The position numbers and the translations under genes are program-made. Positions 9,405-63,319 of a stretch of 64,000 nucleotides of DNA are shown piece after piece. This stretch comes from Vicinamibacteria bacterium (GTDB lineage: Bacteria > Acidobacteriota > Vicinamibacteria > Vicinamibacterales > JAMQPK01). The stretch lies in contig JANMJM010000127.1 in assembly GCA_031371345.1 (NCBI GenBank), positions 133-64,132 on the forward strand, given 5' to 3'. Positions within the stretch are counted from its first letter, which is position 1. Each line of letters starts with the position of its first letter. Under the pieces are notes generated by a model. That model was not told the origin of the DNA, searched no databases, and saw only the letters and a program-made list of their open reading frames with translations.

Positions 9405-10161
9405 GTAACTGCTCCAGCGTAATCGGCTGCAGGCCCGTCGGGATTTTGATCGCGACGAGCTCGTCGCGCGGCAGATCGCCGTTCACTTCGAGCTGACTCA
9501 AGCCGACGGTCAAGTTCGCGTTCGCTGCAAGAATGATGATCTGCGACGGCTGCTCGCCGGCAAACCGCGGGTACTCGATCTCGAGCCCCCCGTATCGCCC
9601 GGCAACAAACCGCCAGCGGCCCGCCTGACGCTGAAGATACAGCGTACCGCTCGACTCGAGATCCACGCTCAGCCAGTCGGAACCGTACTCGCGCCCGCTC
9701 GTCGGCCGAGCATTGGCTTTCACGCATCCGCTCAGCACCGCGCGCAGGTCATCTGGACCGAGCCTGACGCCGATGAGCGCGTTCAGAATGTCTTCCGGCG
9801 CCGTATTCTGCAGAATGCGGCGATCGCGCGGCAGCAGCAGCGTGCCACGCGACCCGTCCGCCGTAAGAATGAACGCGGGACTTCCGAACGGCGCCACCGC
9901 CTCGAGCCGCATGCCTCCGGGTGCGAAGCCCGCGAGCACGCGGCCGCGTAGTTTCTGCGGCCCCGCATTGCCCGATAACGCGAGCTCAACCTGCAGTGAG
10001 CGCACGTCGCGGCAACCCGTCTGTGCGCTGTCGAAGGCCGCCACGTAGTCGGTCGAGGTGGTACCGGTGCCGGTCGGCAGTACAATCCGGCGCGCACCTG
10101 CGGGCGCACACGCAATACCCGCGATGGTCGCCAGCGCGATGAGCAGCAGCCGGTGATTTAT
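9373..10161 (-). CDS. Putative outer-membrane lipoprotein in the lolB slot (start uncertain; ORF-track start is GTG 10044)
   Basis: The frame stays open upstream of GTG 10044 and reads (I)NHRLLLIALATIAGIAC-APAG, i.e. a signal peptide plus a lipobox-like IAGIAC. It occupies the position between a TPR gene and ispE, which is the lolB position in gammaproteobacteria. No canonical start precedes the signal peptide. Confidence 0.5.
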   Translation of the reverse strand: MNHRLLLIALATIAGIACAPAGARRIVLPTGTGTTSTDYVAAFDSAQTGCRDVRSLQVELALSGNAGPQKLRGRVLAGFAPGGMRLEAVAPFGSPAFILTADGSRGTLLLPRDRRILQNTAPEDILNALIGVRLGPDDLRAVLSGCVKANARPTSGREYGSDWLSVDLESSGTLYLQRQAGRWRFVAGRYGGLEIEYPRFAGEQPSQIIILAANANLTVGLSQLEVNGDLPRDELVAIKIPTGLQPITLEQLREAGPLGSEK

Positions 10162-46111: not shown

Positions 46112-47398
46112 ATGATGTCTCACTTTATGCCCGCATTCAGCCGGTTCGCCTCATCGGTCGGCGTGGAGTCGGCCTTCACCGTCTTGGCGGTTGCCAAGAA
46201 GCTCATGGCCGCCGGGAAGGACGTCATCGAGCTCGAGATCGGCGATAGCCCGTTCGCCTCGCCGCAGAAGGTCATCGATGCTGCCATCCAGGCCATCCGC
46301 GACGGCCACACGCGCTACGGACCGTCGCTTGGTATCCCCGAGTTTCGCAAGGCCGCAGCCGAGTACGTGAACCGCGAATACGGTTTGACGGTCACCGCCG
46401 AGCACGTGGTCGCCGGTCCGGGCGCGAAAAACTTCGAGCAGCTGTTCTGCGAGGCATTCCTGAATGCCGGCGACGGCGTGCTGGTCTTCAGCCCGCACTT
46501 CCCGACGTATCCGCCGAATATTTTCCGGCGCAATGCGCGGGTCGTCATCTCCCAACTCAAAGCGTCGCACGACTTCCGCCCGAGCCTCGACGATGTCCGC
46601 CGCTTTCTCAACGAGGACCAGTCGCCGCGCGCGATCTTTTTAAATAGCCCGCACAACCCGACAGGCGGCGTGGCGCTGTTCGAAGACTTGAAGGGGTTGG
46701 CCGATCTGGTTCGAGGACGCGAGGTCGCGGTGTTCAGCGACGAGCCCTACGATCGCATGGTCTGGCGCGGCCGGCATCATAGTCTGCTCGAGCTGCCAGG
46801 CATGCTCGAGCAGACGTTGGCGGCCTATACCTTCAGCAAGTCGTTCAGCATGAGCGGGTGGCGCCTCGGATTTGCCGTCAGCAGCCCCGCGATCATCGAT
46901 GTGTTCGGCAAGCTCACCAACAGCGCGCTTTCGTGCGTGCCGCCGTTTACGCAGATGGCGGGCGTGGCCGCCATGCGCGACGAGCTGCCCTACCGCAACG
47001 CGAAGATGCTGGAGTTTCAAAAGAAGGTCGAGCTGCTCGTGGCGGGATTGAACAAGATCGATGGCGTGTCGTGTCTGATGCCGGGCGGAACGTTTTACGT
47101 GTTTCCCTCGGTCGGGAAGGTGTGCAACCGCCTTGGGATCAGTTCGCAGGGGCTGGCGCTCTTCCTGCTGGAAGGGGCCGACGATCGGCGCGGCGTCGCC
47201 TGCCTGGGAGGCGAGGCGTTCGGCGATGCCGGAAAAGGCTTTCTGCGGTTAAGCTGCGCGCAGCCAGACGAACGGATTGCCGAAGCGGTCGTGTTCATGG
47301 CGCAGGCGTTCACGCGCAAGGATAGGGTCGACGCGTACCTGAAGACTCATCCCGATTATCGGCTCAGCGAGCAGTACGAGGAAATCACCTACGCCTGA
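46112..47398 (+). CDS. Class I/II pyridoxal-phosphate-dependent aminotransferase
   Basis: 428 aa. It has NSPHNPTGG and the PLP-lysine motif FSKSFSMSGWRLGF. Confidence 0.88.
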   Translation: MMSHFMPAFSRFASSVGVESAFTVLAVAKKLMAAGKDVIELEIGDSPFASPQKVIDAAIQAIRDGHTRYGPSLGIPEFRKAAAEYVNREYGLTVTAEHVVAGPGAKNFEQLFCEAFLNAGDGVLVFSPHFPTYPPNIFRRNARVVISQLKASHDFRPSLDDVRRFLNEDQSPRAIFLNSPHNPTGGVALFEDLKGLADLVRGREVAVFSDEPYDRMVWRGRHHSLLELPGMLEQTLAAYTFSKSFSMSGWRLGFAVSSPAIIDVFGKLTNSALSCVPPFTQMAGVAAMRDELPYRNAKMLEFQKKVELLVAGLNKIDGVSCLMPGGTFYVFPSVGKVCNRLGISSQGLALFLLEGADDRRGVACLGGEAFGDAGKGFLRLSCAQPDERIAEAVVFMAQAFTRKDRVDAYLKTHPDYRLSEQYEEITYA

Positions 47399-48528
47399 GC
47401 CGTCGGCGTCGTTCCGCTGACGCCGAGACGTTTCAGGGACGCTTCGAAGTTCGGTTTGTCGACCGACTTCGAGTAGGCCTCGTCGGGGGCCACGATCTTC
47501 TTGGCGACCAGATCGAGCAGCGCCTCGTTCAGCGACACCATACCCACGTTCTTTCCGACCTGCATCATCGACGGAATCTGAAACGTCTTGCCTTCGCGTA
47601 TCAGGTTGGCGATGGCGCTGGTCGCGATCAGCACTTCCAGCGCGGCGATGCGCCCGCCGCCGATCTTGCGGCACAGGGTCTGCGCGATGACGCCGCGGAG
47701 CGATTCCGACAGCATGACGCGAATCTGCGCCTGACGGTCGGCCGGGAACTGATCGATGATGCGGTCAATCGTCGACGCGGCCGTCGTCGTGTGCAGTGTC
47801 CCGAACACCAGGTGCCCCGTCTCGGCCGTCTCAATCGCGATGGCCACCGTTTCCAAATCGCGCAGCTCGCCCACCAGCACGATGTCCGGATCCTCGCGCA
47901 GTGCCGCGCGCAGCGCGGCCTTGAAGGACGTCGTGTGGGTACGAACCTCGCGCTGATTGATCAGGCACTTCTGATTGTCGTGCACGAACTCAATCGGATC
48001 TTCAATCGTGATGATGTGCTCGTCACGGTTCCGATTGATGTAATCGATCATTGCGCACAGCGTCGTCGACTTGCCCGATCCCGTCGGACCGGTCACCAGC
48101 ACAAGCCCTTTGTTGAGTTTGCACAGATTCAGAATGGCCGGGGAGAGGCCGAGCTTTTCGGCCGAGAGAATCTGTGTCGGGATCACGCGAAAGACCGCGC
48201 CTCGTCCTTTTCGATCCGCGTAGATGTTGGCGCGGAACCGCGCGAGGCCCGTAATCTCGTACGCGAAATCGGTGTCGTGGCGCTCGGCAAACTCCGCGCG
48301 GTTCGGCGGCGGCATGATCGGATCGAGTAGCCGCGCCAGAAAGTCGTCGGTCAACGCCGGCATATTCGGATCGAGCGGCTGCATGCGGCCGTCCTTCCGC
48401 ACGAGCGGCGGCGTGCCGACACAGAGGTGCAGGTCCGACGCGCCTCCGTTGACCATCGCGTGAAACAACTTATCAATCGTGTGACCGGTCGCGGGCGCGG
48501 TGCGTTCGGCCTCGGGGGCAAGAGTCAT
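47389..48528 (-). CDS. pilT: Type IV pilus retraction ATPase PilT
   Basis: 379 aa. It has GASDLHL, Walker A GPTGSGKSTT, HLVFGTLHT and the PilT signature AIANLIREGK. Confidence 0.92.
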   Translation of the reverse strand: MTLAPEAERTAPATGHTIDKLFHAMVNGGASDLHLCVGTPPLVRKDGRMQPLDPNMPALTDDFLARLLDPIMPPPNRAEFAERHDTDFAYEITGLARFRANIYADRKGRGAVFRVIPTQILSAEKLGLSPAILNLCKLNKGLVLVTGPTGSGKSTTLCAMIDYINRNRDEHIITIEDPIEFVHDNQKCLINQREVRTHTTSFKAALRAALREDPDIVLVGELRDLETVAIAIETAETGHLVFGTLHTTTAASTIDRIIDQFPADRQAQIRVMLSESLRGVIAQTLCRKIGGGRIAALEVLIATSAIANLIREGKTFQIPSMMQVGKNVGMVSLNEALLDLVAKKIVAPDEAYSKSVDKPNFEASLKRLGVSGTTPTAQA

Positions 48529-52659: not shown

Positions 52660-53622
52660 ATGCAGACGATGATGAACAGGACACGGGATCAGATGAGACG
52701 GTTGTGGAACGCCGACGCGCCTCTCACGGGCGCCAGTATGCTGATGCTGGCCGCTTTGGCGCTTGCCGTTTTTGGCCTGGCAGTCGATCCGCGGACGATC
52801 ACGGGCATGCCGGCATGGATGAAGCCGGCGAAGTTCGCGGTGTCGACCGCGATCTTCATGACGACCCTGGCATGGATCTTCGGCTACCTGCCGTCCTGGG
52901 TGAGGATGCGACGAATCGTCGGCCGGGCGGTCGCCTTCATCTTATTACTCGAGGTCGCCATCGTTTACCTCCAGGCGTGGCGCGGCACAACCAGCCACTT
53001 CAACGCGGGAACGCCGCTGGACACCACGCTCTTCGCCGTGATGGGCATTGCCATCGGGATACAGACCGCTCTCAGTGCGGTTGTCGCGATCGCGTTGTGG
53101 CGCCAGCCGTTCACAGACCGCGCGCTCGGATGGGCGCTGCGCCTCGGTCTCGCCATTTCGATCATCGGCGCGTCAACTGGTGGGCTCATGGTGTCGCCAA
53201 CCGCGGCCCAGATTGCCGAGGCGCGTATCACGCATCGGCTGCCGGTTTCCGGCGGGCATACGGTCGGCGCGCCAGACGGTGAGCCTGGCATCACCGGGCT
53301 TGGATGGAGTCGCGAGCACGGTGACATTCGTGTGCCCCATTTTCTCGGGCTTCACGCACTGCAATTTCTCCCACTCGTCGTCCTCGCAGCGGCGCGCAGA
53401 GGGCTGGCCGACGCTCAACGCGTCCGGTTGGCGTTCGTTGCGGCCGCGAGCTATTTCTCGCTGTTTGCGATCCTTCTGTGGCAGGCGCTGCGAGCTCAGT
53501 CGGTTCTCGGGCCCGACGCGACGACGCTGATCGCGCTGTCGATCTGGGCGGTGGTGACGATCATCATGTCGTGGACCATCGTCTCGCGGCACCCGGTCCG
53601 CTTGCATGTCATGGTGTATTGA
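52660..53622 (+). CDS. Hypothetical polytopic membrane protein
   Basis: 320 aa with about 8 hydrophobic segments and a strong SD (GAGGAG) 6 nt upstream. No family recognised. Confidence 0.65.
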   Translation: MQTMMNRTRDQMRRLWNADAPLTGASMLMLAALALAVFGLAVDPRTITGMPAWMKPAKFAVSTAIFMTTLAWIFGYLPSWVRMRRIVGRAVAFILLLEVAIVYLQAWRGTTSHFNAGTPLDTTLFAVMGIAIGIQTALSAVVAIALWRQPFTDRALGWALRLGLAISIIGASTGGLMVSPTAAQIAEARITHRLPVSGGHTVGAPDGEPGITGLGWSREHGDIRVPHFLGLHALQFLPLVVLAAARRGLADAQRVRLAFVAAASYFSLFAILLWQALRAQSVLGPDATTLIALSIWAVVTIIMSWTIVSRHPVRLHVMVY

Positions 53623-53627
53623 GGTGC

Positions 53628-54074
53628 ATGATGACAGCCAATACCGTCTTCTCGATCGTGAATCCCCTCGCGCTGCTCTCGTGGCTGCTTCTTATCGTGC
53701 TCCCTGGTCGGAGATGGGTGACTGAGATCGTGACGGGACTTGTCGTGCCTGCCCTGCTCGCAGTTGTCTACGTCGCCATCGTCGGCACGCACTTCTTTGG
53801 AAGTCCTGGCGGTTTTTCGTCGCTGCCGGATGTCGCATTGCTGTTCAGCAATCCGTGGCTGCTGCTCGCCGGCTGGGTTCACTATCTGGCGTTCGATCTT
53901 CTGATCGGCACATGGGAAACCCGAGATGCGCGCGAGCGCGGTGTGCCGCATCTCGTGCTGGTGCCCTGCCTGGTCCTTACGTTCCTTTTTGGCCCTGCAG
54001 GGTGGTTGCTGTACCAAGGGCTGCGCGCAGTTGGGGCGCGCCCTCGGTCCCGAACAGCTCAATCGATTGCATGA
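53628..54074 (+). CDS. ABA4-like / DUF4281 membrane protein
   Basis: The ORF runs 53478..54074 and the start is MMTANTVFSIVNPLALLSWLLLIVLPGRRW at 53628. There are four TM segments and WVHYLAFDLLIG. Confidence 0.75.
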   Translation: MMTANTVFSIVNPLALLSWLLLIVLPGRRWVTEIVTGLVVPALLAVVYVAIVGTHFFGSPGGFSSLPDVALLFSNPWLLLAGWVHYLAFDLLIGTWETRDARERGVPHLVLVPCLVLTFLFGPAGWLLYQGLRAVGARPRSRTAQSIA

Positions 54075-54455
54075 TCACATGCGTTGGATCGCCGCCTTTT
54101 CGAGCAGGATACGGTGTCCAATCTGGGTGTGCGAGGCCAACAGCGTTCCTTCCGGCAACTCGAGCACGCTGAAGCTCCCCTCACGGGGAAATCGGACACG
54201 CCATGGTCGAAGGCCGGCCACGGTGTCGACGACGCGTCCCACGGCGTTCAACACGATGATGTCGATCGTAAATCGCATGAACCAGGTATGAACGCCCCGG
54301 CACGGCACAATGAGTAGGCCATCGCCGGCGTCGAGATGATCGCGCGTCAGCAATCCCACGGCGCGCTCGAGCCTTCGCTTGGCGACGGTGACGCGGCGAG
54401 CGACGACGGCGTCGGTGTCGAGATTTTTCGCGACGAGCGTTTCTGATGTCGGCAT
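54075..54455 (-). CDS. DUF192 (COG1430) protein
   Basis: 126 aa: RAVGLLTRDHLDAGDGLLIVPCRGVHTWFMRFTIDIIVLNAVGRVV ... SVLELPEGT. It starts 4 nt after the stop of the 955-aa gene. Confidence 0.8.
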   Translation of the reverse strand: MPTSETLVAKNLDTDAVVARRVTVAKRRLERAVGLLTRDHLDAGDGLLIVPCRGVHTWFMRFTIDIIVLNAVGRVVDTVAGLRPWRVRFPREGSFSVLELPEGTLLASHTQIGHRILLEKAAIQRM

Positions 54456-54459
54456 ACGT

Positions 54460-57327
54460 TTAGAACGGCAGTTTCGCTTCAGTGGTTTGCTCGAACTTCA
54501 CGTCGACGGCGGTCCGCCGCTCGCCGCGGTCGGGATGCGACGCCGTGATTTCGTGAGTGCCGACAACGAGTGGAAGGAGCTCAGCGAACGGCGCCTTGCC
54601 TATCGGCTGTCCGTCGACGCTCACGTCGGTGCCGTCCGGAACGGAAATCTTCAGCGTGCCGGTCGGCAGCGACACTGTGTACGCCGTCACTTCTCCGGGC
54701 TTCACGATCAATGTCTCGTGCTGACGGAAATTGTACCGAGCGTTCACCATCTCGACTTGGTATGTGCCCGGAGCAATCATGAAGCGGCCATCTTCCGCCG
54801 GCGCCACCGTTGCGCCATTCAACTTGATGTCGAGCTTGATCGGCGCGAAGAGCGCCAGCCATCCTGAGAAAATCGCCTCAGATGCGAGCGTCGTCTGTCC
54901 GAGGCGCACCGTCACGCGCCTGATAATGGTGCCTGACCCACTATGCAGCACCAGGTTGTGCGAGCCAGGCTTCAGATTTGGGATCGTCTGAGGTGATTCC
55001 CCGCGGCTCTCGCCATCGAGCGTGATCTGGGCGCCGGCCGGTGTTGTTTCCACCCTCAACGTGCCGCCTTTCACTGGGGGCGCGACGACTTCACGCCGCC
55101 GAACCTCGGTGACGGTGCGTTGGGGAGCGGGCTGGGCGGTCGCCGGTGCTCGCCGCGCACCCGTGTCCATCCCGTTCATCACGACGACCACCAAGGCTGC
55201 GGCCACCGGAAGGCCCCACTTGATCCAACGGACGTAGTTGAACGGCGCCGCTTCCTCGTCTGCTCCCTGCGGACCTTCTGGTTCCGTCGCGTCGCCGCGA
55301 TGGGTGATTTTCTGCCAGAGGCTGTAGTAGTCGCGTCGCTCGCCGGAGAATTGCGCGGCGGCCACCTCGACTTCCGCGACTTCCGCGGGTTGTTCGAGGC
55401 GTAGGGCCGCTTGTTGTTGGAGGCGTAGCGGCGAATCTGCCTGGAGGCGTAGCGGTTGCTGTGGTCGCGCGATGAGCATCGGTGGCGGTGCTTCTGCCAC
55501 GGGAAATGAAATGACCTCGGCCGGCCGACGCGCCGATGCGGCGCGCGCCTGCTCTGCTACGGCGCGGGCTTCTTCCGCGGCTTGGCGTGCCTGCTCGGTT
55601 GCCGCCTGGCGCGCAGATGCGGCTCGCGCCTGCTCTGCGGCAGCACGGGCTTCTTCCGCGGCCTCCCGCGCCTGCTCGGTCGCCGCCTGGCGCATCTCGG
55701 CCATCTGCGTCCGTAGCTCGAGCAGCTGGACCGCTTGACGCTCCTGCGCCTCGGCGCGCACGCGGGCGATTTCAGTTTCGAGAATGGTGTCGGCTTGAGA
55801 GCGCACGCGGGCGATCTCGGCGGCGAGCGTCTGCCGGGCAGCGTCTTCAGCAATCGCCCGCGCCTCTCGCGCGGCGTGCTCACGAATCTGTTCCGCGGTT
55901 TCTTTCGCGTGCGATTGATCGGCGGCGCGCGCGCGCTCGGCGTCCTTGCTGATGCGCTCGAGCTCGGACTTGAGATGCGCGTCGGCTTGCGCGCGAACCT
56001 GGGCCACTTCGGCTTCGAGGGTGCGCGCGGTTTCCGTCGCCTCGTCCTGCACTCGCGTCAAGTCGGCGCGCAGCGCCTCGGCGTCCTGCCGTGCGCGGCC
56101 AATTTCCTGGCTGAGCGTGCGCTCGGCTTCGATCTTCACTCTGTTCACCGCTTCGGCGACTGTGCCTTCCGCCTCCGACCGTACGCGCGCGACTTCCGAC
56201 GCAAGAGCACGCCGTGTCTCCTCCTCCGCTGCCGCTCGCGCATCGGCGATCGCGGCTTCGCGCATTGCATCCGAGTCGGCTTGGAGCCGCGCGAGCTCGG
56301 CGAGGCGACGCTCTTCGGCCTCGGCACGAACACGTTCAAGTTCCCTCGCCAGGTTGGCTTCGGTCTCGGCCTGGACGAGCGCCACTTCAGCGGCCATCCG
56401 TTCGGCCGATTCCTCGTTCTGCACGTCGACCAGCCCCGCCTCGAGACTCAGGCCCAAATCGCGCGCGAGCTGATCGAGATCGCTTTTGCCGGGTTCGGCA
56501 TTCACAGGCGCGGCGGTGAATCGTTCCGACGCCCATGGATCGGCGAACGCTACCGGCTCGATGTTGGTGTTCGGAACGGGCGCGTTGAACACAGATGAGG
56601 TATCAGGAGATTCATTGTGCGAGACCTGGTTCACAGGCGCTGCGGTGAACCGTTCTGTCGACCAAGGATCGGCGGCGCGCGGTTGGTCGAGGACACTCGA
56701 TGGTTCAGCCACGGGTTCGCCGGGCTCTGGCGTCCATGCCGCCGGCTCGGGCGTCCAGGTCGCCGGCTCCGGTGCCCAAGCTGCCGGCTCGGGTGCCGAC
56801 GCGACGGGCTCGGGTGTCCAAGGTTCAGGTTCGGCCGTCCAAGGCTCGGGCTCCGGATTCACCTCCGCTGTTGGCGCATTAATAAGGGTGGGGTACTCGC
56901 GGGTTCGCACTGGCCGGTTTCGTAATTCGGCTGCGCGCTCCAAGTGGGTCGCGACCTCTTCGGCGAAGACCGCCGGGTCGCAACCCGTGGGCGCCGCGGT
57001 CTCTTTTTTTTTCTTCCGGAAGCTGAAGCCCCCGGTCTTCCCCCCCGACGAAGACGACTTGCCCGACGATTTTCGCAATTGCGGAATCGTCAGCGTCTGA
57101 AGATGTGAGGCGCCGTCGAGCGATCGCAGATACGTCATCAACCGGTCTTCATCGCGGGGCGACAGCAAGGCCGTCACAAGGATAACGTCCGGCACCTGTC
57201 GGTCGATGGTCTCGATAGCGGCGTCGATGGACGGCACCAGAACGAGCTCCGCTCCAAGGCGCTTCTGCATCGTCCGCAGAAGATTTGCCTGGTTTGTATC
57301 TGGCTCGACCAGCAACACGACGCTCAT
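54460..57327 (-). CDS. 955-aa receiver-like / acidic-repeat / coiled-coil / single-TM / PEGA-domain protein
   Basis: The N-terminal CheY-like fold is MSVVLLVEPD...PDVILVTALLSP. It is followed by (PEPxxW)n, a long A/E/R/Q coiled coil, a TM segment WIKWGLPVAAALVVVVMNG, and C-terminal PEGA units (LRVETTPAGAQITLDGESRG; LKISVPDGTDVSVDGQPIG). Confidence 0.85.
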   Translation of the reverse strand: MSVVLLVEPDTNQANLLRTMQKRLGAELVLVPSIDAAIETIDRQVPDVILVTALLSPRDEDRLMTYLRSLDGASHLQTLTIPQLRKSSGKSSSSGGKTGGFSFRKKKKETAAPTGCDPAVFAEEVATHLERAAELRNRPVRTREYPTLINAPTAEVNPEPEPWTAEPEPWTPEPVASAPEPAAWAPEPATWTPEPAAWTPEPGEPVAEPSSVLDQPRAADPWSTERFTAAPVNQVSHNESPDTSSVFNAPVPNTNIEPVAFADPWASERFTAAPVNAEPGKSDLDQLARDLGLSLEAGLVDVQNEESAERMAAEVALVQAETEANLARELERVRAEAEERRLAELARLQADSDAMREAAIADARAAAEEETRRALASEVARVRSEAEGTVAEAVNRVKIEAERTLSQEIGRARQDAEALRADLTRVQDEATETARTLEAEVAQVRAQADAHLKSELERISKDAERARAADQSHAKETAEQIREHAAREARAIAEDAARQTLAAEIARVRSQADTILETEIARVRAEAQERQAVQLLELRTQMAEMRQAATEQAREAAEEARAAAEQARAASARQAATEQARQAAEEARAVAEQARAASARRPAEVISFPVAEAPPPMLIARPQQPLRLQADSPLRLQQQAALRLEQPAEVAEVEVAAAQFSGERRDYYSLWQKITHRGDATEPEGPQGADEEAAPFNYVRWIKWGLPVAAALVVVVMNGMDTGARRAPATAQPAPQRTVTEVRRREVVAPPVKGGTLRVETTPAGAQITLDGESRGESPQTIPNLKPGSHNLVLHSGSGTIIRRVTVRLGQTTLASEAIFSGWLALFAPIKLDIKLNGATVAPAEDGRFMIAPGTYQVEMVNARYNFRQHETLIVKPGEVTAYTVSLPTGTLKISVPDGTDVSVDGQPIGKAPFAELLPLVVGTHEITASHPDRGERRTAVDVKFEQTTEAKLPF
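55528..55689 (-). repeat. 2 x 81-bp in-frame tandem repeat inside the 955-aa gene
   Basis: aa 547-573 QAATEQAREAAEEARAAAEQARAASAR is followed directly by aa 574-600 QAATEQARQAAEEARAVAEQARAASAR. Confidence 0.85.
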
Positions 57328-57328
57328 A

Positions 57329-57601
57329 TCAGGTCCTCAACATCGCGACGAACAGAAGACATGCCGCCACGAGAAACGCAAAAAGGTAAACGTTGTCGCT
57401 GGCATACCCCGAGGTCACCGCAATGATCGAGTCGACCGTATGGCTGACAACGGCGCTTCCCGTTTCCCACTGCTGGTTCGTAATGCCGCCCGTCACTTCC
57501 CCGGCGCGTTCGCGTACGCGGGGATTGATCGAGACCATCATGACGAGCAGCGCGGTAAGCGCTCCGAGCGCAATCGCGGTGTCGCGGAATTTTTTCTTCA
57601 T
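57329..57601 (-). CDS. Small two-TM membrane protein, first gene of the divergent operon
   Basis: The ORF runs 57329..57724, with likely start MKKKFRDTAIALGALTALLVMMV at 57601 (or 57613). A second TM is VYLFAFLVAACLLFVAML. Its stop is 1 nt from the start of the 955-aa gene. Confidence 0.6.
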   Translation of the reverse strand: MKKKFRDTAIALGALTALLVMMVSINPRVRERAGEVTGGITNQQWETGSAVVSHTVDSIIAVTSGYASDNVYLFAFLVAACLLFVAMLRT

Positions 57602-57985
57602 GACGTGACTCATTACATGACTCGCGCGCAACTCTGGTACGCGCAGAACCCCTTTCGCAAGCGCCGTGCCTGTCGTGTCGTACTGATCATGTGTTTTGGA
57701 ACACAGCTTTCTTCTGGCAAACATTGCTGTTGTCGCGCGCGTGTGCTGTTTTGATCGCCGTCGTGCCGCAGGGCCATGGACAATTCATGCACTTCGGTTA
57801 CGAAATTGGCAGGGGCGACCGCGTGCAATTCCCACCGATCAGTTCGGTCTTCGTACTACCAACTTTGTCGAGTCGGGCGTGTGCTGCTTCAAGCCACGGT
57901 ACGCGCTCGAACCGGGTGGTGGTCGCACCGTAACTGGTTCGCCGCTCTGCTAGTTACGCCATTCTGATACCACAAATTACTCGCG

Positions 57986-58000
57986 TGGTACGCCGGTTGC
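57986..58000 (+). promoter_or_regulatory. Sigma54-type -24/-12 promoter candidate upstream of flp
   Basis: TGGTACGCCGGTTGC compared with consensus TGGCACG-N4-TTGC (one deviation, canonical GG/GC spacing). It lies 58 nt upstream of the flp ATG. Confidence 0.5.
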
Positions 58001-58057: not shown

Positions 58058-58243
58058 ATGGTGTACCTCGTTTCACTCGTCAACTGGCTTCACCGAGAGG
58101 AAGACGGACAGGATCTTCTCGAATACGCGCTGCTTGTGGCGTTGATCGCCCTGGTGGCCGTCGGAGCCGTGACGGCAGCTGGCGTGCGCGTCGACGCGAT
58201 CTTCAAGGCCGTTGTCGCCGCGATTCCGTTGCCCGCCGCCTAA
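58058..58243 (+). CDS. flp: Flp/Fap-family type IVb pilin
   Basis: The ORF runs 58004..58243. ATG 58058 is preceded by TAAGGAGG. The 61-aa product has the Flp motif EEDG-QDLLEYALLVALIALVAV. Confidence 0.88.
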   Translation: MVYLVSLVNWLHREEDGQDLLEYALLVALIALVAVGAVTAAGVRVDAIFKAVVAAIPLPAA

Positions 58244-58317: not shown

Positions 58318-58830
58318 ATGGTGGGAGCACTCTCGAACGCCGTCGTGTTCGCGACGTTATGTGCAGGCGTCGGCACCGCGGCGGTGATCGACGTCCGGCA
58401 TCGGCGGATTCCTAACGTGGTTTGTGCCACGACAGCCATCGCGGGAATCACGTTCGCAGCAACAGGTGTTAGCCAAATTACCGTGGCCTCGTCGGCGATT
58501 GGGTTGGTCATCGGGCTCGTGATGATGCTGCCGGGCCATCTGTTCGGCGCCACTGGAGCCGGTGACGTGAAGTTATTCGGCGCTGCGGGCGCACTGCTCG
58601 GCGCCGGACGAATCTTGCCCGCGTTCTTTTTTATGGCGATCGCCGGCGGCGTGCTGGCCGTCTTCATCGCCTGGCAGCGCGGCAGACTTCGACAGACCAT
58701 GCGGCACACCGCACAACTGGCCGGGGGAAGTGCCGACGCAAAGGCGGCAATCGAGTCGCCGCGCACGAATAACAGATTTCCTTATGGCCCGGCCATCGCG
58801 GTCGGCAGCGTGCTCGCGGCGCTGATGTAG
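58318..58830 (+). CDS. cpaA: Prepilin peptidase CpaA/TadV (A24 family)
   Basis: 170 aa: AAVIDVRHRRIPN ... GAGDVKLFGAAGALLG. Confidence 0.88.
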   Translation: MVGALSNAVVFATLCAGVGTAAVIDVRHRRIPNVVCATTAIAGITFAATGVSQITVASSAIGLVIGLVMMLPGHLFGATGAGDVKLFGAAGALLGAGRILPAFFFMAIAGGVLAVFIAWQRGRLRQTMRHTAQLAGGSADAKAAIESPRTNNRFPYGPAIAVGSVLAALM

Positions 58831-58839
58831 ATAGCAGAG

Positions 58840-59298
58840 ATGGATAAAGGAGACCGACCCATGCAACCTCGTCACGGCGAACGCGGAAATGCGCTCATTG
58901 AGACGGCCATCACGATGCCGATTCTTCTGCTGCTGATGGTCGGCATCTTCGAGATCGGCCGCGCGTACGAAACGTGGCAGGTGCTGACCAACGCGGCGCG
59001 CGAAGGCGCGCGCATGTCGGTCACGCCAGACAACAACGCGGCGACGACGACGGCGAGGATACGGCAATACATGGCGGACGGCCAGCTCCCAAAATCGGCG
59101 CAGGCCACAGTGGACGTGAATACCGCGGGAACCATGGTCGTGAACGGGCTGACCGTCGGTGTGTCGAAGATCACCGTCGACTATCCGTTCGAATTCATCA
59201 TGTTGCAGCCGGTCGCCCGGCTCGTCGTGCCGGGCACGGCCACCGGGGCAGCCATCACCATGCGCGCGACCGCGCTAATGCGTAACGAATCACAGTAG
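58840..59298 (+). CDS. tadE: TadE-like pilus assembly protein (pseudopilin)
   Basis: 152 aa: GERGNALIETAITMPILLLLMVGIFEIGRAY, the TadE N-terminal motif. Confidence 0.8.
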   Translation: MDKGDRPMQPRHGERGNALIETAITMPILLLLMVGIFEIGRAYETWQVLTNAAREGARMSVTPDNNAATTTARIRQYMADGQLPKSAQATVDVNTAGTMVVNGLTVGVSKITVDYPFEFIMLQPVARLVVPGTATGAAITMRATALMRNESQ

Positions 59299-59320: not shown

Positions 59321-60175
59321 ATGACTCGCATGCGGATTTTGACTGTGTTTCTCGTGGCGCTCATCGCTGGAGGCGGACTGGCAGCTGGCACCTACAGCTA
59401 CCTGCAGAACGTGCCGGTGAAGACGGTCACGGTGCCGACCCGGCCGGTGGTCGTCGCCAACGCGAACCTCTCGCTCGGCAGCGAGCTGCGCGCCGACGAT
59501 CTCACCACAATTGACTGGCCGACGAGCGCTGTTCCGGAAGGCGCATTTGACAGCGTCGCTGCGCTGGTCGGCCGCGGTCTAATCGCGTCGGTCGTCCGCC
59601 ACGAGCCCGTCCTTCCTGGAAAACTTTCGTCGAAGGAAGCGGGCAGCGGCCTGCCGCCAATTATTCCCGAGGGGAAACGCGCGCTGTCGGTGAAGGTGAA
59701 CGAAGTGATCGGTGTCGCCGGCTATGTGCTCCCGGGCACGCACGTTGACGTGCTCGCGACGGCCAACGCGAGCAACCGCGCGGAAGACATGACGTCGAAG
59801 GTTGTTCTGTCGAACGTCCAGGTGCTCACCGCGGGCACGCGCCTCGAGCAGGAGACGAAAGACAGCAAGCCGGTGCAGGTGACCGTCGTCACCCTGCTCG
59901 TGACGCCGGAGGAAGCCGAGCGGTTGACGCTCGCCAGCACCGAAGGCCGAATTCAACTCGCACTGCGCAATCCGATGGACCTCGGATCTCCCGAGACGCC
60001 AGGCATTCGGCCAGGCATGCTCCTTGGCAACGTTCAGCAAACTAGAGCCGCGTCCCCGTCCCCGATCAAACGGGTGACGACGGTCTCGAAACCGGCGGCG
60101 CCTGTTACCCAGCCGGCCGCACCCACTGTCGAAATCATCCGCGGCGACAAGCGCGTCTACGTCACCGTTGGATAG
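59321..60175 (+). CDS. cpaB: Flp pilus assembly protein CpaB/RcpC
   Basis: 284 aa with an N-terminal TM, a SAF-like domain (VVVANANLSLGSELRADDL) and an RcpC beta-domain. Confidence 0.88.
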   Translation: MTRMRILTVFLVALIAGGGLAAGTYSYLQNVPVKTVTVPTRPVVVANANLSLGSELRADDLTTIDWPTSAVPEGAFDSVAALVGRGLIASVVRHEPVLPGKLSSKEAGSGLPPIIPEGKRALSVKVNEVIGVAGYVLPGTHVDVLATANASNRAEDMTSKVVLSNVQVLTAGTRLEQETKDSKPVQVTVVTLLVTPEEAERLTLASTEGRIQLALRNPMDLGSPETPGIRPGMLLGNVQQTRAASPSPIKRVTTVSKPAAPVTQPAAPTVEIIRGDKRVYVTVG

Positions 60176-62141
60176 GAGATTGATGATGAACATCGCCCGA
60201 ACCTCTCATCCCAGCGTTCTGCGCACTGTGGCCGTCGCCATCCTTATCGTGATGGTGCTCCCGCCGTTCCTCCCCACGCGTGGCGTGGTCGTGGCGAACG
60301 GCGAAGTCGACATGAGCCCCGCAACCGAGCAGATCTTTTTGCTCGTGGGCCGCTCGACCATCATCCGCACCGATCGCCCCATCGCGCGCGTGTCGGTCTC
60401 GACACCCGACATCGCCGATGCGATGGTCACGGCTCCACGCGAGCTGCTGGTCCACGGGAAAACGCCCGGCACCATCTCGTTGCTCGTCTGGAACGACAAC
60501 GGACGCATTACCTCGTACGAAGTTGCGGTTCGTCGCGATTTGAGTCCGCTCGATGCCCAAATCAAGAGGCAGTTTCCTGACGAACAGATCGCCGTCGCCA
60601 GCAACGGCAAAGACGTCGTGCTGTCGGGCATCGTCTCGACCAAGTACGTCGTCGATCGCGCGTCTTCACTCGCGGTGGGCTACGTCGACAAAGCCGAGAA
60701 CGTCGTCAACTTGCTCCGCCAGCAGGAAAGCACGCTCACCAATCAGGTGATGCTCAAGGTGCGGTTCGCCGAAGTGAGCCGCAGCGCAATCCAGGAGCTC
60801 GGCGCGTCGTTCTTTACCGGGCCCAACGGCAAAGGTGACTGGATTGCGCGCGGCACGACGCAGCAGTTTCCGGCCCCGACCTTCGATAAGGACAAAGGGC
60901 TCGTCTTCAGCGATTTCCTGAATTTATTTGCGTTCAACACCGAAGAGCAGCTCGGTCTTGTCGTGCGTGCACTCAAGAACAAGGGCTTGTTTGAGAGCTT
61001 AGCGGAGCCCAATCTGATCACGCAGGATGGAGTCGAGGCGAGCTTCCTTGCCGGCGGCGAGTTTCCCTACCCTGTCGTTCAGGGCGGCGGCGCCAACGCG
61101 TCAGTCACGATCATGTTCAAAGAATTCGGCGTTCGTCTGAAATTCACGCCGACGATTACGGCGGGCGACATGGTCCACTTGAAGGTCGCGCCAGAAGTGA
61201 GCACGCTCGACTTCAGCAACTCCGTCACTCTTCAAGGCTTCAGCGTGCCGGCCCTCGCCACACGCCGTACAGAAACACAGGTCGAGCTTCGGGACGGCCA
61301 GACGTTCGCGATCGCCGGACTCCTCGATCGCAACGTGAACGAGACCCTGGAGCGCGTGCCGGGTATCGGCGACATTCCGATCCTCGGGTATCTGTTCCGC
61401 AGCCAGAAATATAAGAAGAACCACACCGAACTGGTCGTGATGATTACGCCGCACATCGTTCGCCGTGGCGAGTCCGGCGTGACGCCGAATTTGCCGGCTC
61501 TGGATCAGCCATTCCTGCAGGTGCCCAATAAAAAGGTTCCACAGCCTCCGCCGGCTTTCTCCAATCCTACGTCGGGGCAGGATCAGGGTGCACCGGCGCG
61601 CAGCGTCGTCTCCAATGCACCATCCATCGAGCCGGCCGCACCTGACGTTCGCGTAAACGACAACGAGCGCAAGGCGGCCGACAAGGCGATTAAGGATCTG
61701 GCAAGACAGCAGGCGGTGCTCTCGCAGCAGCAACAAAAGCAGAGTGCGGCCTCACAGCGCACGGCGGCGGTGCAGGCCAGGCAGGAACAGGAACACACCC
61801 GAGAAGCTGCCAAGATCGAAGCGGCGCGCGCAGCGAAAGATCAGCAGGCCGCGGCACGTCAACAGGCGATCGACGCCGAACGTCAGAAGCGCGAGCAGAA
61901 AATCTCGGAGAAGCGCGCGGCCGAGCAGGCGATTGTAGACCGTAAGCGCTGGATGGAGCAGCAGGCACAGGCCGCGGAAGCGAAAGAAGCCGCCGACAAG
62001 CTGGCGAGGGAACAGGAAAAAATCAAGAAGGAACAGGACCGGCTCGCTAAGGAACAGGCGGCGCGTCAGAGCGAATTGGCCCGGTTGGTCTCGCAATACC
62101 GGAAGCTCACCGAACCCCAGACGACGCAACCGTCGCAATAG
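60168..62141 (+). CDS. cpaC: Tad secretin CpaC/RcpA with a long C-terminal coiled-coil extension
   Basis: 657 aa. It has a BON-like N-domain and a secretin core (GQTFAIAGLLDRNVNETLERVPGIGDIPILGYLFRS...ELVVMITPHIV). About 220 extra residues follow, including a Q/A/K/E-rich helix (aa ~497-645). Confidence 0.9.
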   Translation: MDRRLMMNIARTSHPSVLRTVAVAILIVMVLPPFLPTRGVVVANGEVDMSPATEQIFLLVGRSTIIRTDRPIARVSVSTPDIADAMVTAPRELLVHGKTPGTISLLVWNDNGRITSYEVAVRRDLSPLDAQIKRQFPDEQIAVASNGKDVVLSGIVSTKYVVDRASSLAVGYVDKAENVVNLLRQQESTLTNQVMLKVRFAEVSRSAIQELGASFFTGPNGKGDWIARGTTQQFPAPTFDKDKGLVFSDFLNLFAFNTEEQLGLVVRALKNKGLFESLAEPNLITQDGVEASFLAGGEFPYPVVQGGGANASVTIMFKEFGVRLKFTPTITAGDMVHLKVAPEVSTLDFSNSVTLQGFSVPALATRRTETQVELRDGQTFAIAGLLDRNVNETLERVPGIGDIPILGYLFRSQKYKKNHTELVVMITPHIVRRGESGVTPNLPALDQPFLQVPNKKVPQPPPAFSNPTSGQDQGAPARSVVSNAPSIEPAAPDVRVNDNERKAADKAIKDLARQQAVLSQQQQKQSAASQRTAAVQARQEQEHTREAAKIEAARAAKDQQAAARQQAIDAERQKREQKISEKRAAEQAIVDRKRWMEQQAQAAEAKEAADKLAREQEKIKKEQDRLAKEQAARQSELARLVSQYRKLTEPQTTQPSQ

Positions 62142-62164: not shown

Positions 62165-63319
62165 ATGAGCAGGCTTCAACAAAAACTGCGGGACGAGCGG
62201 GGTATGACGGTCGTGATGGTGGGCGTCGGTTTTCTGGCGTTCATGAGCGCGACGATGCTGGCCATCGACGTCGGCCAGATGATGGTCGCGCGCACGCAGT
62301 CGCAGAGCGCGGCCGACGCCGGGGCTCTCGCGGGCGCCGTCGCGCTCGCGTTCGACAACTACGACGATCGATCGGCGGGCGGCCCGGCCGTGCAGAACGC
62401 GATTGAGGCAGCGCGGTCGACGTCGAATAACGTCGTGAACGCAAAGACCTCCGTCATCGCAAGCGACGTGACGTTTCCCGCCATCGACAAGGTCCGCGTG
62501 GTCGTGCAGAGCAGCGCCGCGCGGGGGAATCCTATCTCGATGTTCATCGCCCCGATCATCGGCATCAACACCGCCAATGTGGGCGCGATCGCCACAGCGC
62601 AAGTGATGCCGGCCAACGCGATGACCTGCGTGAAGCCGTTTACGATTCCCGACAAGTGGGTCGAAAACCAGACACCGCCATGGGATTCGACCGATACGTT
62701 CGACGCGTTCGACAAAAAGGGAAACCCGATTGCGAATCCCGACGTCTACATCCCGAAAGGGGATCCAGCGAACCCAAATCCCAATTACTCGGGGTACGAC
62801 CAGAAGCGCGATACGGGCACGCTGCTCACGCTGAAGGCCGGCACCGGCAACAACATCGAGCCGAGCTTTTATTTCGCCTGGGCGATTCCGGGGAGTGGCG
62901 GCGCCAGTGATTACCGCTGGAACATCGGCAACTGCAATACGACCGTCATCGGCTTCGATTTTCTCGAAACAGCTGAGCCAGGAAACATGGTCGGGCCGAC
63001 CAAACAGGGCATGGACGATCTGATCGCACGCGATCCGAGCGCCTACTGGGATGCGACCAACAAGAGAGTGGTCAGCGATATTCATCCGAGCCCTCGGGTA
63101 GTGGCGATTCCCGTGTTTGATCCGGTGTACTACGAGAGCGGCAAAGTGAACGGCCGGAATGCCGATCTGAAGGCGGTCAACTACATCGGATTTTTCATCG
63201 ATCGTATGGTAGGCAACGACGTGCGGGGGTACATTACGCCGATCGGTGGCCTCTATAAAGGTAATGGCGGCCCGACGCCGCCTGGCGCGTTTCCAAAAGC
63301 AATCGTCCTGGTCGAATAG
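62165..63319 (+). CDS. tadG: TadG-like pilus assembly protein
   Basis: 384 aa: DERGMTVVMVGVGFLAFMSATMLAIDVGQMMVARTQSQSAADAGALAGA, the Tad_N motif. Confidence 0.8.
   Translation: MSRLQQKLRDERGMTVVMVGVGFLAFMSATMLAIDVGQMMVARTQSQSAADAGALAGAVALAFDNYDDRSAGGPAVQNAIEAARSTSNNVVNAKTSVIASDVTFPAIDKVRVVVQSSAARGNPISMFIAPIIGINTANVGAIATAQVMPANAMTCVKPFTIPDKWVENQTPPWDSTDTFDAFDKKGNPIANPDVYIPKGDPANPNPNYSGYDQKRDTGTLLTLKAGTGNNIEPSFYFAWAIPGSGGASDYRWNIGNCNTTVIGFDFLETAEPGNMVGPTKQGMDDLIARDPSAYWDATNKRVVSDIHPSPRVVAIPVFDPVYYESGKVNGRNADLKAVNYIGFFIDRMVGNDVRGYITPIGGLYKGNGGPTPPGAFPKAIVLVE

Follow-up and report, generated by a model that had tools for sequence, protein, structure and literature searches.

A conserved gene pair divergent from a Tad/Flp pilus locus in Vicinamibacterales-like Acidobacteriota: a candidate pilus-organiser module built on a pseudo-receiver protein

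The DNA analysed here (the window) is a 64,000-nucleotide (nt) stretch of the genome of a Vicinamibacteria bacterium (Acidobacteriota; GenBank assembly GCA_031371345.1, contig JANMJM010000127.1, positions 133 to 64,132), which carries towards its end a Tad/Flp pilus locus and, divergent from it, three closely spaced genes. These genes, referred to below as the module, encode a small protein with two hydrophobic segments, a 955-residue protein with a receiver-like head (the big protein) and a member of the DUF192 family:

57329..57601, minus strand: small gene, 90 amino acids (aa), first gene of the module
54460..57327, minus strand: big gene, 955 aa, second gene of the module
54075..54455, minus strand: DUF192 gene, 126 aa, third gene of the module in this window

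A first-pass annotation, made from the letters of the window without database searches, had described three minus-strand genes with gaps of 1 nt and 4 nt and a 456-bp divergent spacer to flp, and all of its coordinates and junctions are confirmed. The small and big genes are joined as TGA-T-ATG (1 nt) and the big and DUF192 genes as TAA-ACGT-ATG (4 nt), while flp starts on the opposite strand at 58058, with AAGGAGG in front, 456 bp from the start of the small gene. An alternative, longer open reading frame (ORF) for the small gene has 131 aa and reaches 57724; the 90-aa start is preferred because homologues begin at MKKKFRD (57601) and because a promoter, described below, sits inside the longer frame. 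The module ORFs are real and not due to chance, since there are 149 homologues at E<=1e-3 and the AlphaFold2 (AF2) models are confident. A look-up of the 955-aa sequence for identical entries gave no match.

The Tad operon on the other side of the spacer is made up as follows:

58058-58243, plus strand: flp
58318-58830, plus strand: cpaA, prepilin peptidase (Pfam)
58840-59298, plus strand: tadE (Pfam)
59321-60175, plus strand: cpaB, RcpC/CpaB (Pfam)
60168-62141, plus strand: cpaC, secretin (Pfam)
62165-63319, plus strand: tadG-like gene
from 63330, plus strand: cpaE/tadZ, running past the end of the window

Flp, prepilin peptidase, TadE, RcpC/CpaB, secretin and TadZ/CpaE thus lie in one operon by Pfam, as is proper to a Tad/Flp locus. 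The Flp of the window is under the Pfam cut-off (21.9 vs 32.2) and is 54-77% identical to products of flp genes in related loci that are called Flp_Fap. The atypical receiver domain that the annotation had ascribed to the neighbouring TadZ/CpaE was recovered as a weak Response_reg/TadZ_N match in the N-terminal domain of the gene from 63330; the AAA_31 match is also weak, the gene being partial at the window end. Related loci have the same order of Tad genes, followed by cpaF, tadB and tadC. CpaC carries at aa ~450-657, after the secretin domain, an A/E/K/Q-rich and probably helical C-terminal tail of about 200 aa, and this tail is a trait of this Tad subtype because the related secretins have 647-833 aa (L042, L044, L047 and L129).

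The association of the module with Tad genes was surveyed in both directions. The forward survey, with one genome per species, gave 41 loci, all from Acidobacteriota or Vicinamibacterales metagenome-assembled genomes or bins so labelled, save for a few evident mis-binnings. An N-terminal domain of the big protein at least 50% identical to that of the window was taken as canonical. In every genome locus that combines a canonical domain with an upstream flank (18/18), the genes flp-cpaA-(tadE)-cpaB-cpaC-(tadG)-cpaE lie immediately upstream on the opposite strand, and most of these loci have the small gene in the interval from flp to the big gene, L014-L016 being those in which tblastn did not detect it. 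Six distant relatives, looked up singly (P0109, P0115, P0117, P0095, P0112 and P0116), have only the N-terminal domain and the helical stalk in common with the window protein, and all six show the same Tad-divergent arrangement, with a small gene of 69-117 aa. Neighbours on the far side of the module differ by lineage and include genes for an ABA4-like protein, an amidohydrolase, an SNF2 helicase/methylase, an FGE-sulfatase (sulfatase-modifying) protein and a PIG-L protein.

For the reverse survey, 80 metagenome loci were fetched with a CpaB profile and counted as informative where at least about 1.1 kb upstream of flp was available. The N-terminal domain gene was found on the opposite strand upstream of flp in 24/24 informative loci, and tblastn detected the small gene in 19 of them. 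L128, the sole informative locus of a more distant Tad subtype (CpaB 45% identical), has genes for an ECF sigma factor and a SnoaL-like protein at the site of the module. The Tad proteins of all positive loci, CpaB included, are 55-77% identical to those of the window; the module therefore marks one Tad subtype and not Tad loci generally. To that subtype it is linked in 48/48 informative loci, and its association with Tad is strongly supported. The annotation had tied the module to Tad loci, and the survey, run both ways, placed it there each time (24/24 forward and 24/24 reverse) rather than scattered among unrelated neighbourhoods.

Sigma-54 promoters have the consensus TGGCACG-N4-TTGCW, with GG at -24 and GC at -12, a consensus reportedly set out by Barrios et al. 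in 1999. The spacer between the small gene and flp contains two opposed promoters of this type and, between them, a series of conserved blocks, that is, runs of at least 4 columns identical in at least 12 of 14 aligned spacers:

57657-57670, minus strand: sigma-54-type promoter GGCACGGCGCTTGC, with -24 GG and -12 GC, facing the small gene, whose start is 55 nt past its 3' end
57987-58000, plus strand: sigma-54-type promoter GGTACGCCGGTTGC, facing flp, whose ATG at 58058 is 57 nt past its 3' end
57738-57884, no strand assigned: conserved blocks GCACAC..., ...TGATT, TTTCGTAA-N-GAATTGT and CGGnACAC

The pattern GGYACG-N4-TTGC matches the 64-kb window at exactly these two promoters, against an expectation of 0.38. 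Both are conserved in a MAFFT alignment of the 14 spacers (at least 80% consensus; the module-facing one at GG, ACG and TTGC). A slightly relaxed pattern gave 77 matches in 46 related loci (699 kb), 71 of which fall in this spacer in the right orientation; the flp-facing match is present in 43/46 loci and the module-facing one in 28/46. The only two matches in each of L129 and L130 are this same promoter pair. Co-regulation of the module with flp is argued because the two opposed promoters are the sole matches in the window and are conserved in relatives, and one enhancer-binding protein may fire both units. The blocks at 57738-57884 are likely candidates for activator sites (upstream activating sequences) or IHF sites. 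A scan of 53.9-58.3 kb for sigma-70 promoters and terminators gave nothing above the shuffled expectation. The predicted module leader is about 44 nt in the window; in L005-L011, around 9709-9735, only about 12 nt separate the end of the module promoter's -12 element from the GTG called as the start of the small gene, which points either to wrongly called starts or to an mRNA with almost no leader. Control by sigma-54 is a recurring feature of pili in general (PMC3162934).

The small protein has a basic N-terminus, a first TM (transmembrane) segment, an NPRVRER motif, a loop of about 35 aa, a second TM segment and an end in ...LMLRT; it matched no family in Pfam or NCBIfam. Where close relatives have its ORF intact, the gene adjoins or overlaps the big gene; in a few (e.g. 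L015 and L017) it is frameshifted or undetected. In the distant loci L042, L044, L046, L047, L129 and L130 it precedes the big gene by 4-64 nt. It occurs in all the architecture classes of the big protein set out below.

The third gene behaves otherwise. Its product matches Pfam DUF192 (PF02643) at 55.6 bits vs 27 (E=5.8e-15, 94/96 profile positions covered), lacks a signal peptide and TM segments, and has no sequence match in the PDB. In the window and in 13 genome loci the gene comes directly after the big gene; five relatives have it behind tadB/tadC, at the 3' end of the tad operon:

L016, 415-765: DUF192 gene
L044, 187-606: DUF192 gene
L047, 235-540: DUF192 gene
L061, 18478-18816: DUF192 gene
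L093, 20012-20332: DUF192 gene

As its position switches between the two operon ends, DUF192 is best regarded as a mobile member of the Tad gene set that is not tied to the big protein. The three genes that the annotation grouped as one module are therefore contiguous here, but the part of that module which is conserved is the pair formed by the small two-TM gene and the pseudo-receiver/coiled-coil gene. The gene order is an indication that the DUF192 family is functionally tied to Tad pili; no paper linking DUF192 to pili was found in the open-access literature (PMC Creative-Commons and bioRxiv). Behind a DUF192 gene placed at the end of the tad operon, several relatives carry a gene of about 440-450 aa (L061:18600-20186, plus strand; partial in L044:1-190 and L047:1-235). 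It was considered as a sigma-54 activator and rejected, having no Pfam match and no activator domain.

The big protein was divided into the following parts:

56908..57327, minus strand: pseudo-receiver domain, aa 1-140 (AF2, Foldseek)
56428..56907, minus strand: acidic Pro-rich linker, aa 141-300, net charge -19, with PEPxxW repeats and two ADPW boxes
55408..56427, minus strand: A/E/R/Q-rich helical (coiled-coil-type) region, aa 301-640, with A 26%, E 15% and R 13%
55315..55332, minus strand: juxtamembrane motif DYYSLW, aa 666-671, about 35 aa before the TM segment
55162..55221, minus strand: single TM segment, aa ~703-722, from a hydropathy scan, its position kept in an alignment of 18 homologues
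54463..55065, minus strand: three tandem PEGA-type beta-sandwiches of about 65 aa each, aa 755-955 (Pfam, AF2), presumably periplasmic

In an alignment of 18 full-length homologues, conservation is by far the strongest over the first ~135 residues, with the consensus VLxVEPDxxQA...VPDLILLSALLSPRDED...ASHLQTLTIPQ...GFxFRKK...GCDPxxFAEEV. The AF2 model of this head, built on 30 family members (pLDDT 83.8), has the topology beta1-alpha1-beta2-alpha2-beta3-alpha3-beta4, followed by a disordered K/S/G-rich loop at aa 85-117 and a helix at aa 118-137; the conserved GFxFRKK lies within the basic disordered loop, and GCDP then precedes the terminal helix. Foldseek searches of the PDB with the model returned receiver domains almost exclusively, including BaeR, LuxO, FrzS, DivK and the CikA pseudo-receiver, with typical alignments of about 80 columns at a root-mean-square deviation (rmsd) of 2.3-2.7 Å and TMq of about 0.5. 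At the level of sequence the likeness is faint. The head misses the gathering score of Pfam Response_reg (PF00072; 15.3 bits vs 30.2, E=0.024, profile positions 1-67 only), its only NCBIfam match is the HrmK receiver at 14.5 bits, and its best PDB sequence match, the RstA receiver, is marginal (E=0.055).

In the alignment with RstA the acceptor Asp falls on T53, and the acidic pair of RstA (VEDD) on VEPD, where the first acidic residue is Pro. The CheY-like fold with Thr at the acceptor position, which the first-pass annotation had aligned by eye, is thus borne out by both structure and alignment. No conserved phospho-acceptor Asp at the end of beta3 was found across the family: the position is occupied by S (72), T (22), G (10), N (3) and D (2) in the first search and by S (63), T (47), G (4), P (2) and D (1) among cluster representatives. 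Nor is there a complete (beta-alpha)5 fold with the beta5 Lys, as in the AF2 model the disordered loop replaces alpha4-beta5, and judging from its position GCDP probably stands in place of the K-P motif. With the receiver fold and without the acceptor Asp and beta5 Lys, the head is a pseudo-receiver as defined in PMC12632262, where the analyses cover Pfam-called PF00072 sequences, a call below which this head falls. The absence of the alpha4-beta5 segment makes it an exceptionally truncated example. In the whole big protein, conservation is highest in the loops around the former active site (LLSPRDE, TIPQ and GCDP), which probably form a preserved binding surface. An RxxD-like cyclic di-GMP motif in SPRDED is not claimed, as its last Asp is not conserved, and the idea that the head is a duplicated atypical receiver domain (ARD) of TadZ was dropped on comparing the head profile with the N-terminus of the locus's own CpaE (hhalign probability 0.6%).

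Behind the head, the linker of the window protein contains PEPxxW four times and PEP seven times at aa 158-202 (a DNA tandem repeat at 56718-56843 with a period of 21/42) and two ADPW(S/A)xERFTAAPVN boxes at aa 219 and 262. The helical region carries a recurring LxxELxRVRxEAE, with six xxRVRxEAE-like units, a tandem of 2 x 27 aa at aa 549-600 (DNA 55529-55693, 81-bp period, 86% match) and, at its end, three LRL(Q/E) units at aa 626-645. Its composition and repeats suggest a helical or coiled-coil stalk. Across homologues of all architecture classes the stalk keeps its type of sequence while varying in length, and the acidic linker varies in both length and sequence; the PEP tract, ADPW boxes, 27-aa tandem and LRLQ units belong to the window protein alone and are not shared by the rest of the family. 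The alignment of 18 homologues shows no variation at Y667 and L670 of DYYSLW and very little at W671, and the motif is also found in the polytopic class P0102-P0109. Because the N-terminal domain has no signal peptide, an N-in/C-out topology can be assumed for the TM segment. Pfam PEGA (PF08308) matches the C-terminal part in two stretches (61.4 bits vs a gathering score of 20.8, E=7.5e-17), and AF2 of the last 215 residues (pLDDT 90.2) gave three all-beta domains, of which only the first and third reach Pfam PEGA; in Foldseek this part resembles strings of Ig-like domains, the best being B. anthracis TIE (6fwv). Every element listed in the annotation, from the acidic PEPxxW tract, the two ADPW boxes, the xARVRxxAE-type units, the 27-aa tandem and the LRLQ units to the one TM segment and the 2-3 PEGA domains (three in AF2, two stretches by Pfam), is present and of the kind described. 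As an architecture for the family the description does not hold, since the acidic tract and ADPW boxes are unconserved and TM plus PEGA is one of at least four C-terminal variants.

The same combination of TM and three PEGA domains, including an IFSGWLA motif, is carried on an unrelated N-terminal region with a long disordered linker in another family of Acidobacteriota (L029:7988-10774, plus strand; also L024, L030-L034, L036, L037 and L039). The gene of the L029 type lies about 3 kb upstream of a LolA gene and of a gene for a 1094-aa TPR-secretin, and the PEGA module may be a general element of secretin neighbourhoods. Because L024 and L029-L040, matches by PEGA only that have a secretin 5 kb downstream, represent a different protein with only TM and PEGA in common, they were rejected as members of the present family and left out of the linkage counts.

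A profile search with the head against 1.84 billion proteins gave 2324 cluster representatives at E<=1e-3, of which 585 reach E<=1e-30; the weakest of the 2324 may be ordinary receivers. No Pfam or NCBIfam model exists for the head domain, and existing labels of family proteins are "PEGA domain-containing" or "CheY-like" only. The canonical N-terminal domain is joined to at least four types of C-terminus:

this window: TM segment followed by three PEGA domains
P0102-P0109 and P0120: TM segment followed by two further C-terminal TM segments (polytopic)
P0111-P0116: soluble domain of about 60 aa ending in GCRIRRVRVP
P0110, P0117 and P0118: a fourth kind

The soluble type is the commonest among the top 133 cluster representatives (40/133). 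Every type checked lies divergent from Tad genes and has the small hairpin protein as its partner, so the core of the module consists of two genes, one for the small two-TM protein and one for the pseudo-receiver with its stalk. Five proteins with a divergent N-terminal domain, which lacks LLSPRDE/HLQT, are not beside Tad genes (L027, L028, L035, P0099 and P0087). Loci of this kind, with a divergent pseudo-receiver and PEGA and resembling paralogues, are L027, L028, L035 (10001-11700), L045:10001-13960 and L048:7407-11030; among the divergent non-Tad paralogues one adjoins a sigma-70 gene and one a LysR regulator gene. The soluble-class relatives of P0115 designated P0244, P0276 and P0280 bear the precomputed Pfam label PF28068. 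The annotation knew of no Tad accessory module of such composition, and no description of the module was found in the open-access literature, searches for PEGA with Tad, for Vicinamibacter pili and for Tad with sigma-54 included.

Among known organisers of type IV filament machines, FrzS offers the closest parallel to the head and stalk. With a pseudo-receiver and a coiled coil it targets SgmX, the activator of type IVa pili, to the pole (PMC1974792, PMC9811614), acting by protein recognition and not by phosphorylation to organise a polar type IV filament machine (same sources). Like the big protein it has an N-terminal pseudo-receiver without acceptor Asp followed by a long coiled coil, the helicity of the stalk being in the present case a prediction. 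The FrzS receiver (2i6f) is among the Foldseek matches of the head (E=1.6e-3, 83 columns, rmsd 2.7 Å, identity 24%), and is absent from the phmmer PDB matches of the head at E<=10, so that homology within the FrzS family is not indicated. FrzS keeps the alpha4-beta5-alpha5 output face, which is essential for its function (PMC1974792), whereas the head studied here has the disordered basic loop instead. Unlike the module, FrzS is soluble, serves type IVa pili in the frz context, and has neither a small membrane partner nor PEGA domains.

RomR consists of a receiver and a disordered acidic, Pro-rich region, and this layout is common to RomR and the big protein as compared by description only. 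RomR is, however, a soluble general polarity hub that is not encoded beside tad genes and has no coiled-coil stalk, TM segment or PEGA domain. With its degenerate receiver it positions the Tad machine of Bdellovibrio bacteriovorus and binds TadZA (bioRxiv 10.64898/2026.07.08.737194). The CpaE/TadZ of the present locus keeps an atypical receiver domain of its own, whereas the Bdellovibrio TadZA is without one.

PodJ has a cytoplasmic N-terminal part rich in coiled coil, one TM segment and a periplasmic C-terminal part, and thus resembles the big protein in its bitopic topology. It differs in lacking a receiver-like head and in not being adjacent to the cpa locus, and no periplasmic TPR or peptidoglycan-binding domains of the PodJ type were found in the big protein with Pfam and NCBIfam, which has only the PEGA-type beta-sandwiches there. 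FimV, HubP and TspA are large membrane-anchored scaffolds with acidic, repeat-rich cytoplasmic regions that organise polar pili or flagella. The topology of FimV/HubP is the opposite one, with a periplasmic N-terminal LysM domain and a cytoplasmic C-terminus carrying the FimV TPR motif; neither LysM nor the FimV C-terminal motif was found in the big protein (Pfam, NCBIfam), and the likeness in acidic regions concerns a tract that is unconserved in the protein's own family. In Caulobacter crescentus PodJ localises the TadZ homologue CpaE, and the ARDs of TadZ proteins have been proposed as protein-interaction modules for Tad localisation or complex assembly (bioRxiv 10.64898/2026.07.08.737194). 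The ARD of TadZ/CpaE is, like the head, a receiver-like domain without phosphorylation chemistry in a Tad system, but it is fused to a ParA/MinD ATPase where the head is fused to a stalk and a membrane anchor. The annotation had likened the layout of the big protein to those of PodJ, FimV and HubP while seeing no sequence similarity to any of them; the latter point is upheld, as none of their defining domains was found, and of the former the bitopic topology of PodJ stands, while that of FimV/HubP is reversed and FrzS and RomR are closer analogues than they are. By analogy, and not by homology, the mode of action of the big protein would resemble that of FrzS, RomR or PodJ.

We tentatively read the locus as a dedicated accessory organiser module of one Tad/Flp pilus subtype in Vicinamibacterales-like Acidobacteriota, close to an even call. 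One enhancer-binding activator would switch on the pilin and machine genes together with the module. The big protein would dimerise through its stalk and be held at the inner membrane by its own TM segment, by the small hairpin protein or by both. Its remodelled active-site face (the LLSPRDE, TIPQ and GCDP loops) and the basic GFxFRKK loop would bind a cytoplasmic Tad component, most plausibly TadZ/CpaE, since this protein carries an atypical receiver domain itself, with CpaF as the alternative; ARDs of TadZ and degenerate receivers are recurrent means of positioning Tad machines, as the PodJ-CpaE and RomR-TadZA parallels show (bioRxiv 10.64898/2026.07.08.737194). This contact would organise where, or whether, Tad machines assemble, and in the PEGA class the periplasmic domains might in addition contact the envelope (CpaB/CpaC or the cell wall). 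Linkage in the forward and reverse directions, pairing with the small gene, the paired promoters, a receiver fold without acceptor and the precedents of FrzS, RomR and PodJ together make such a role plausible.

Several points weigh against it. Since all loci come from one related Tad subtype, common descent accounts for part of the synteny. In 18/46 loci, which are among the more distant ones, no module-facing sigma-54 match is recognisable, and no gene for an enhancer-binding protein was found in the nine window ORFs of 34-54 kb or after DUF192 and the tad operon in L061. The head has no sequence similarity to the N-terminus of CpaE by hhalign, and contacts of the big protein with TadZ/CpaE, CpaF, CpaB or CpaC are hypothetical. 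The stalk may be made of helical repeats and not of one long coiled coil, and polar placement of pili in these bacteria may be no more than an assumption.

The divergent arrangement about a shared control region, which is typical of regulator-target pairs, would also suit a transmembrane regulator of tad expression, in which the pseudo-receiver titrates or activates the receiver of a sigma-54 enhancer-binding protein, and the PEGA domains or the small membrane protein report the status of the pilus or envelope and feed back on the two divergent promoters. Both promoters are of the sigma-54 type with conserved blocks between them, and pseudo-receivers commonly act via protein-protein contacts (PMC12632262); no DNA-binding domain was found with Pfam and NCBIfam, so any regulation would be by partner binding. 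A helical stalk of ~300 aa with a long disordered linker would, however, be out of the ordinary in a simple anti-activator; proteins of the commonest class, being without TM segment and periplasmic part, have no obvious sensing route; and no linked gene for an enhancer-binding protein was found (nine window ORFs; end of the tad operon in L061). We consider a regulator unlikely.

Presence in 24/24 Tad loci of the subtype is what would be expected of an obligatory part, and the big protein could then be an integral structural subunit of this Tad machine, such as a cytoplasmic or inner-membrane cage or an element aligning the platform with CpaB/CpaC, that serves assembly and not placement. Its apparent co-expression with the pilin would agree with this, the PEGA domains could reach the periplasmic CpaB/CpaC ring, and the unusual long helical tail of the subtype's secretin hints at extra architecture. 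Core machine subunits do not, on the other hand, exchange their C-terminal half freely as this protein does (PEGA, polytopic TM or soluble); the linker is hypervariable, and well-studied Tad systems need no such protein. A structural subunit is accordingly quite improbable. That the big protein is a general cell-envelope or cytoskeletal protein with no pilus role, its adjacency to flp being gene order inherited in one clade, would fit the origin of all loci in related Acidobacteriota and the paralogues with divergent N-terminal domain and PEGA away from Tad (L027, L028, L035, L045 and L048), yet it is very hard to reconcile with an adjacency that survives changes of the C-terminal half and of downstream neighbours, with a DUF192 gene that moves only between the two ends of the same Tad neighbourhood, and with a promoter type common to both units.

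An organiser module is therefore retained as the preferred reading. Acidobacteriota belong to the most abundant bacteria of soils, and little is understood of how they attach to surfaces. To our knowledge, the placement or switching of Tad machines is known in only a few model bacteria, each with a different and unrelated organiser. The cases are PodJ-CpaE in Caulobacter and RomR-TadZA in Bdellovibrio, the latter from a 2026 preprint (bioRxiv 10.64898/2026.07.08.737194). Organisers of type IV filaments based on degenerate receivers are a known kind, and what is new is the undescribed family itself. With some caution, and as a possibility that falls short of probable, this family may be put forward as a sigma-54-co-regulated Tad organiser that is always accompanied by a two-TM partner, obligatory for the Tad subtype that dominates in Vicinamibacterales-like soil Acidobacteriota, independent in origin of FrzS, RomR and PodJ, equipped with exchangeable anchors, and bearing a face that binds TadZ/CpaE or a small ligand. 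The analysis yields a candidate gene pair, a predicted regulatory logic in the paired sigma-54 promoters and a new domain family without a model; if the proposed role is true, degenerate receivers would have been enlisted three times independently as organisers of type IV filament machines, and hundreds of hypothetical proteins now called "PEGA domain-containing" and "CheY-like" would receive a name.

Two further genes of the window were noted. A second ATPase of the T2SSE family, of PilT-like size (379 aa), is encoded at 47389-48528 on the minus strand, about 10 kb from the Tad locus, with no adjoining pilus genes. An ABA4-like membrane protein gene at 53478-54074 on the plus strand is convergent with DUF192; it is kept at this place only in the closer Vicinamibacterales loci, and is therefore a useful marker for the end of conserved synteny.

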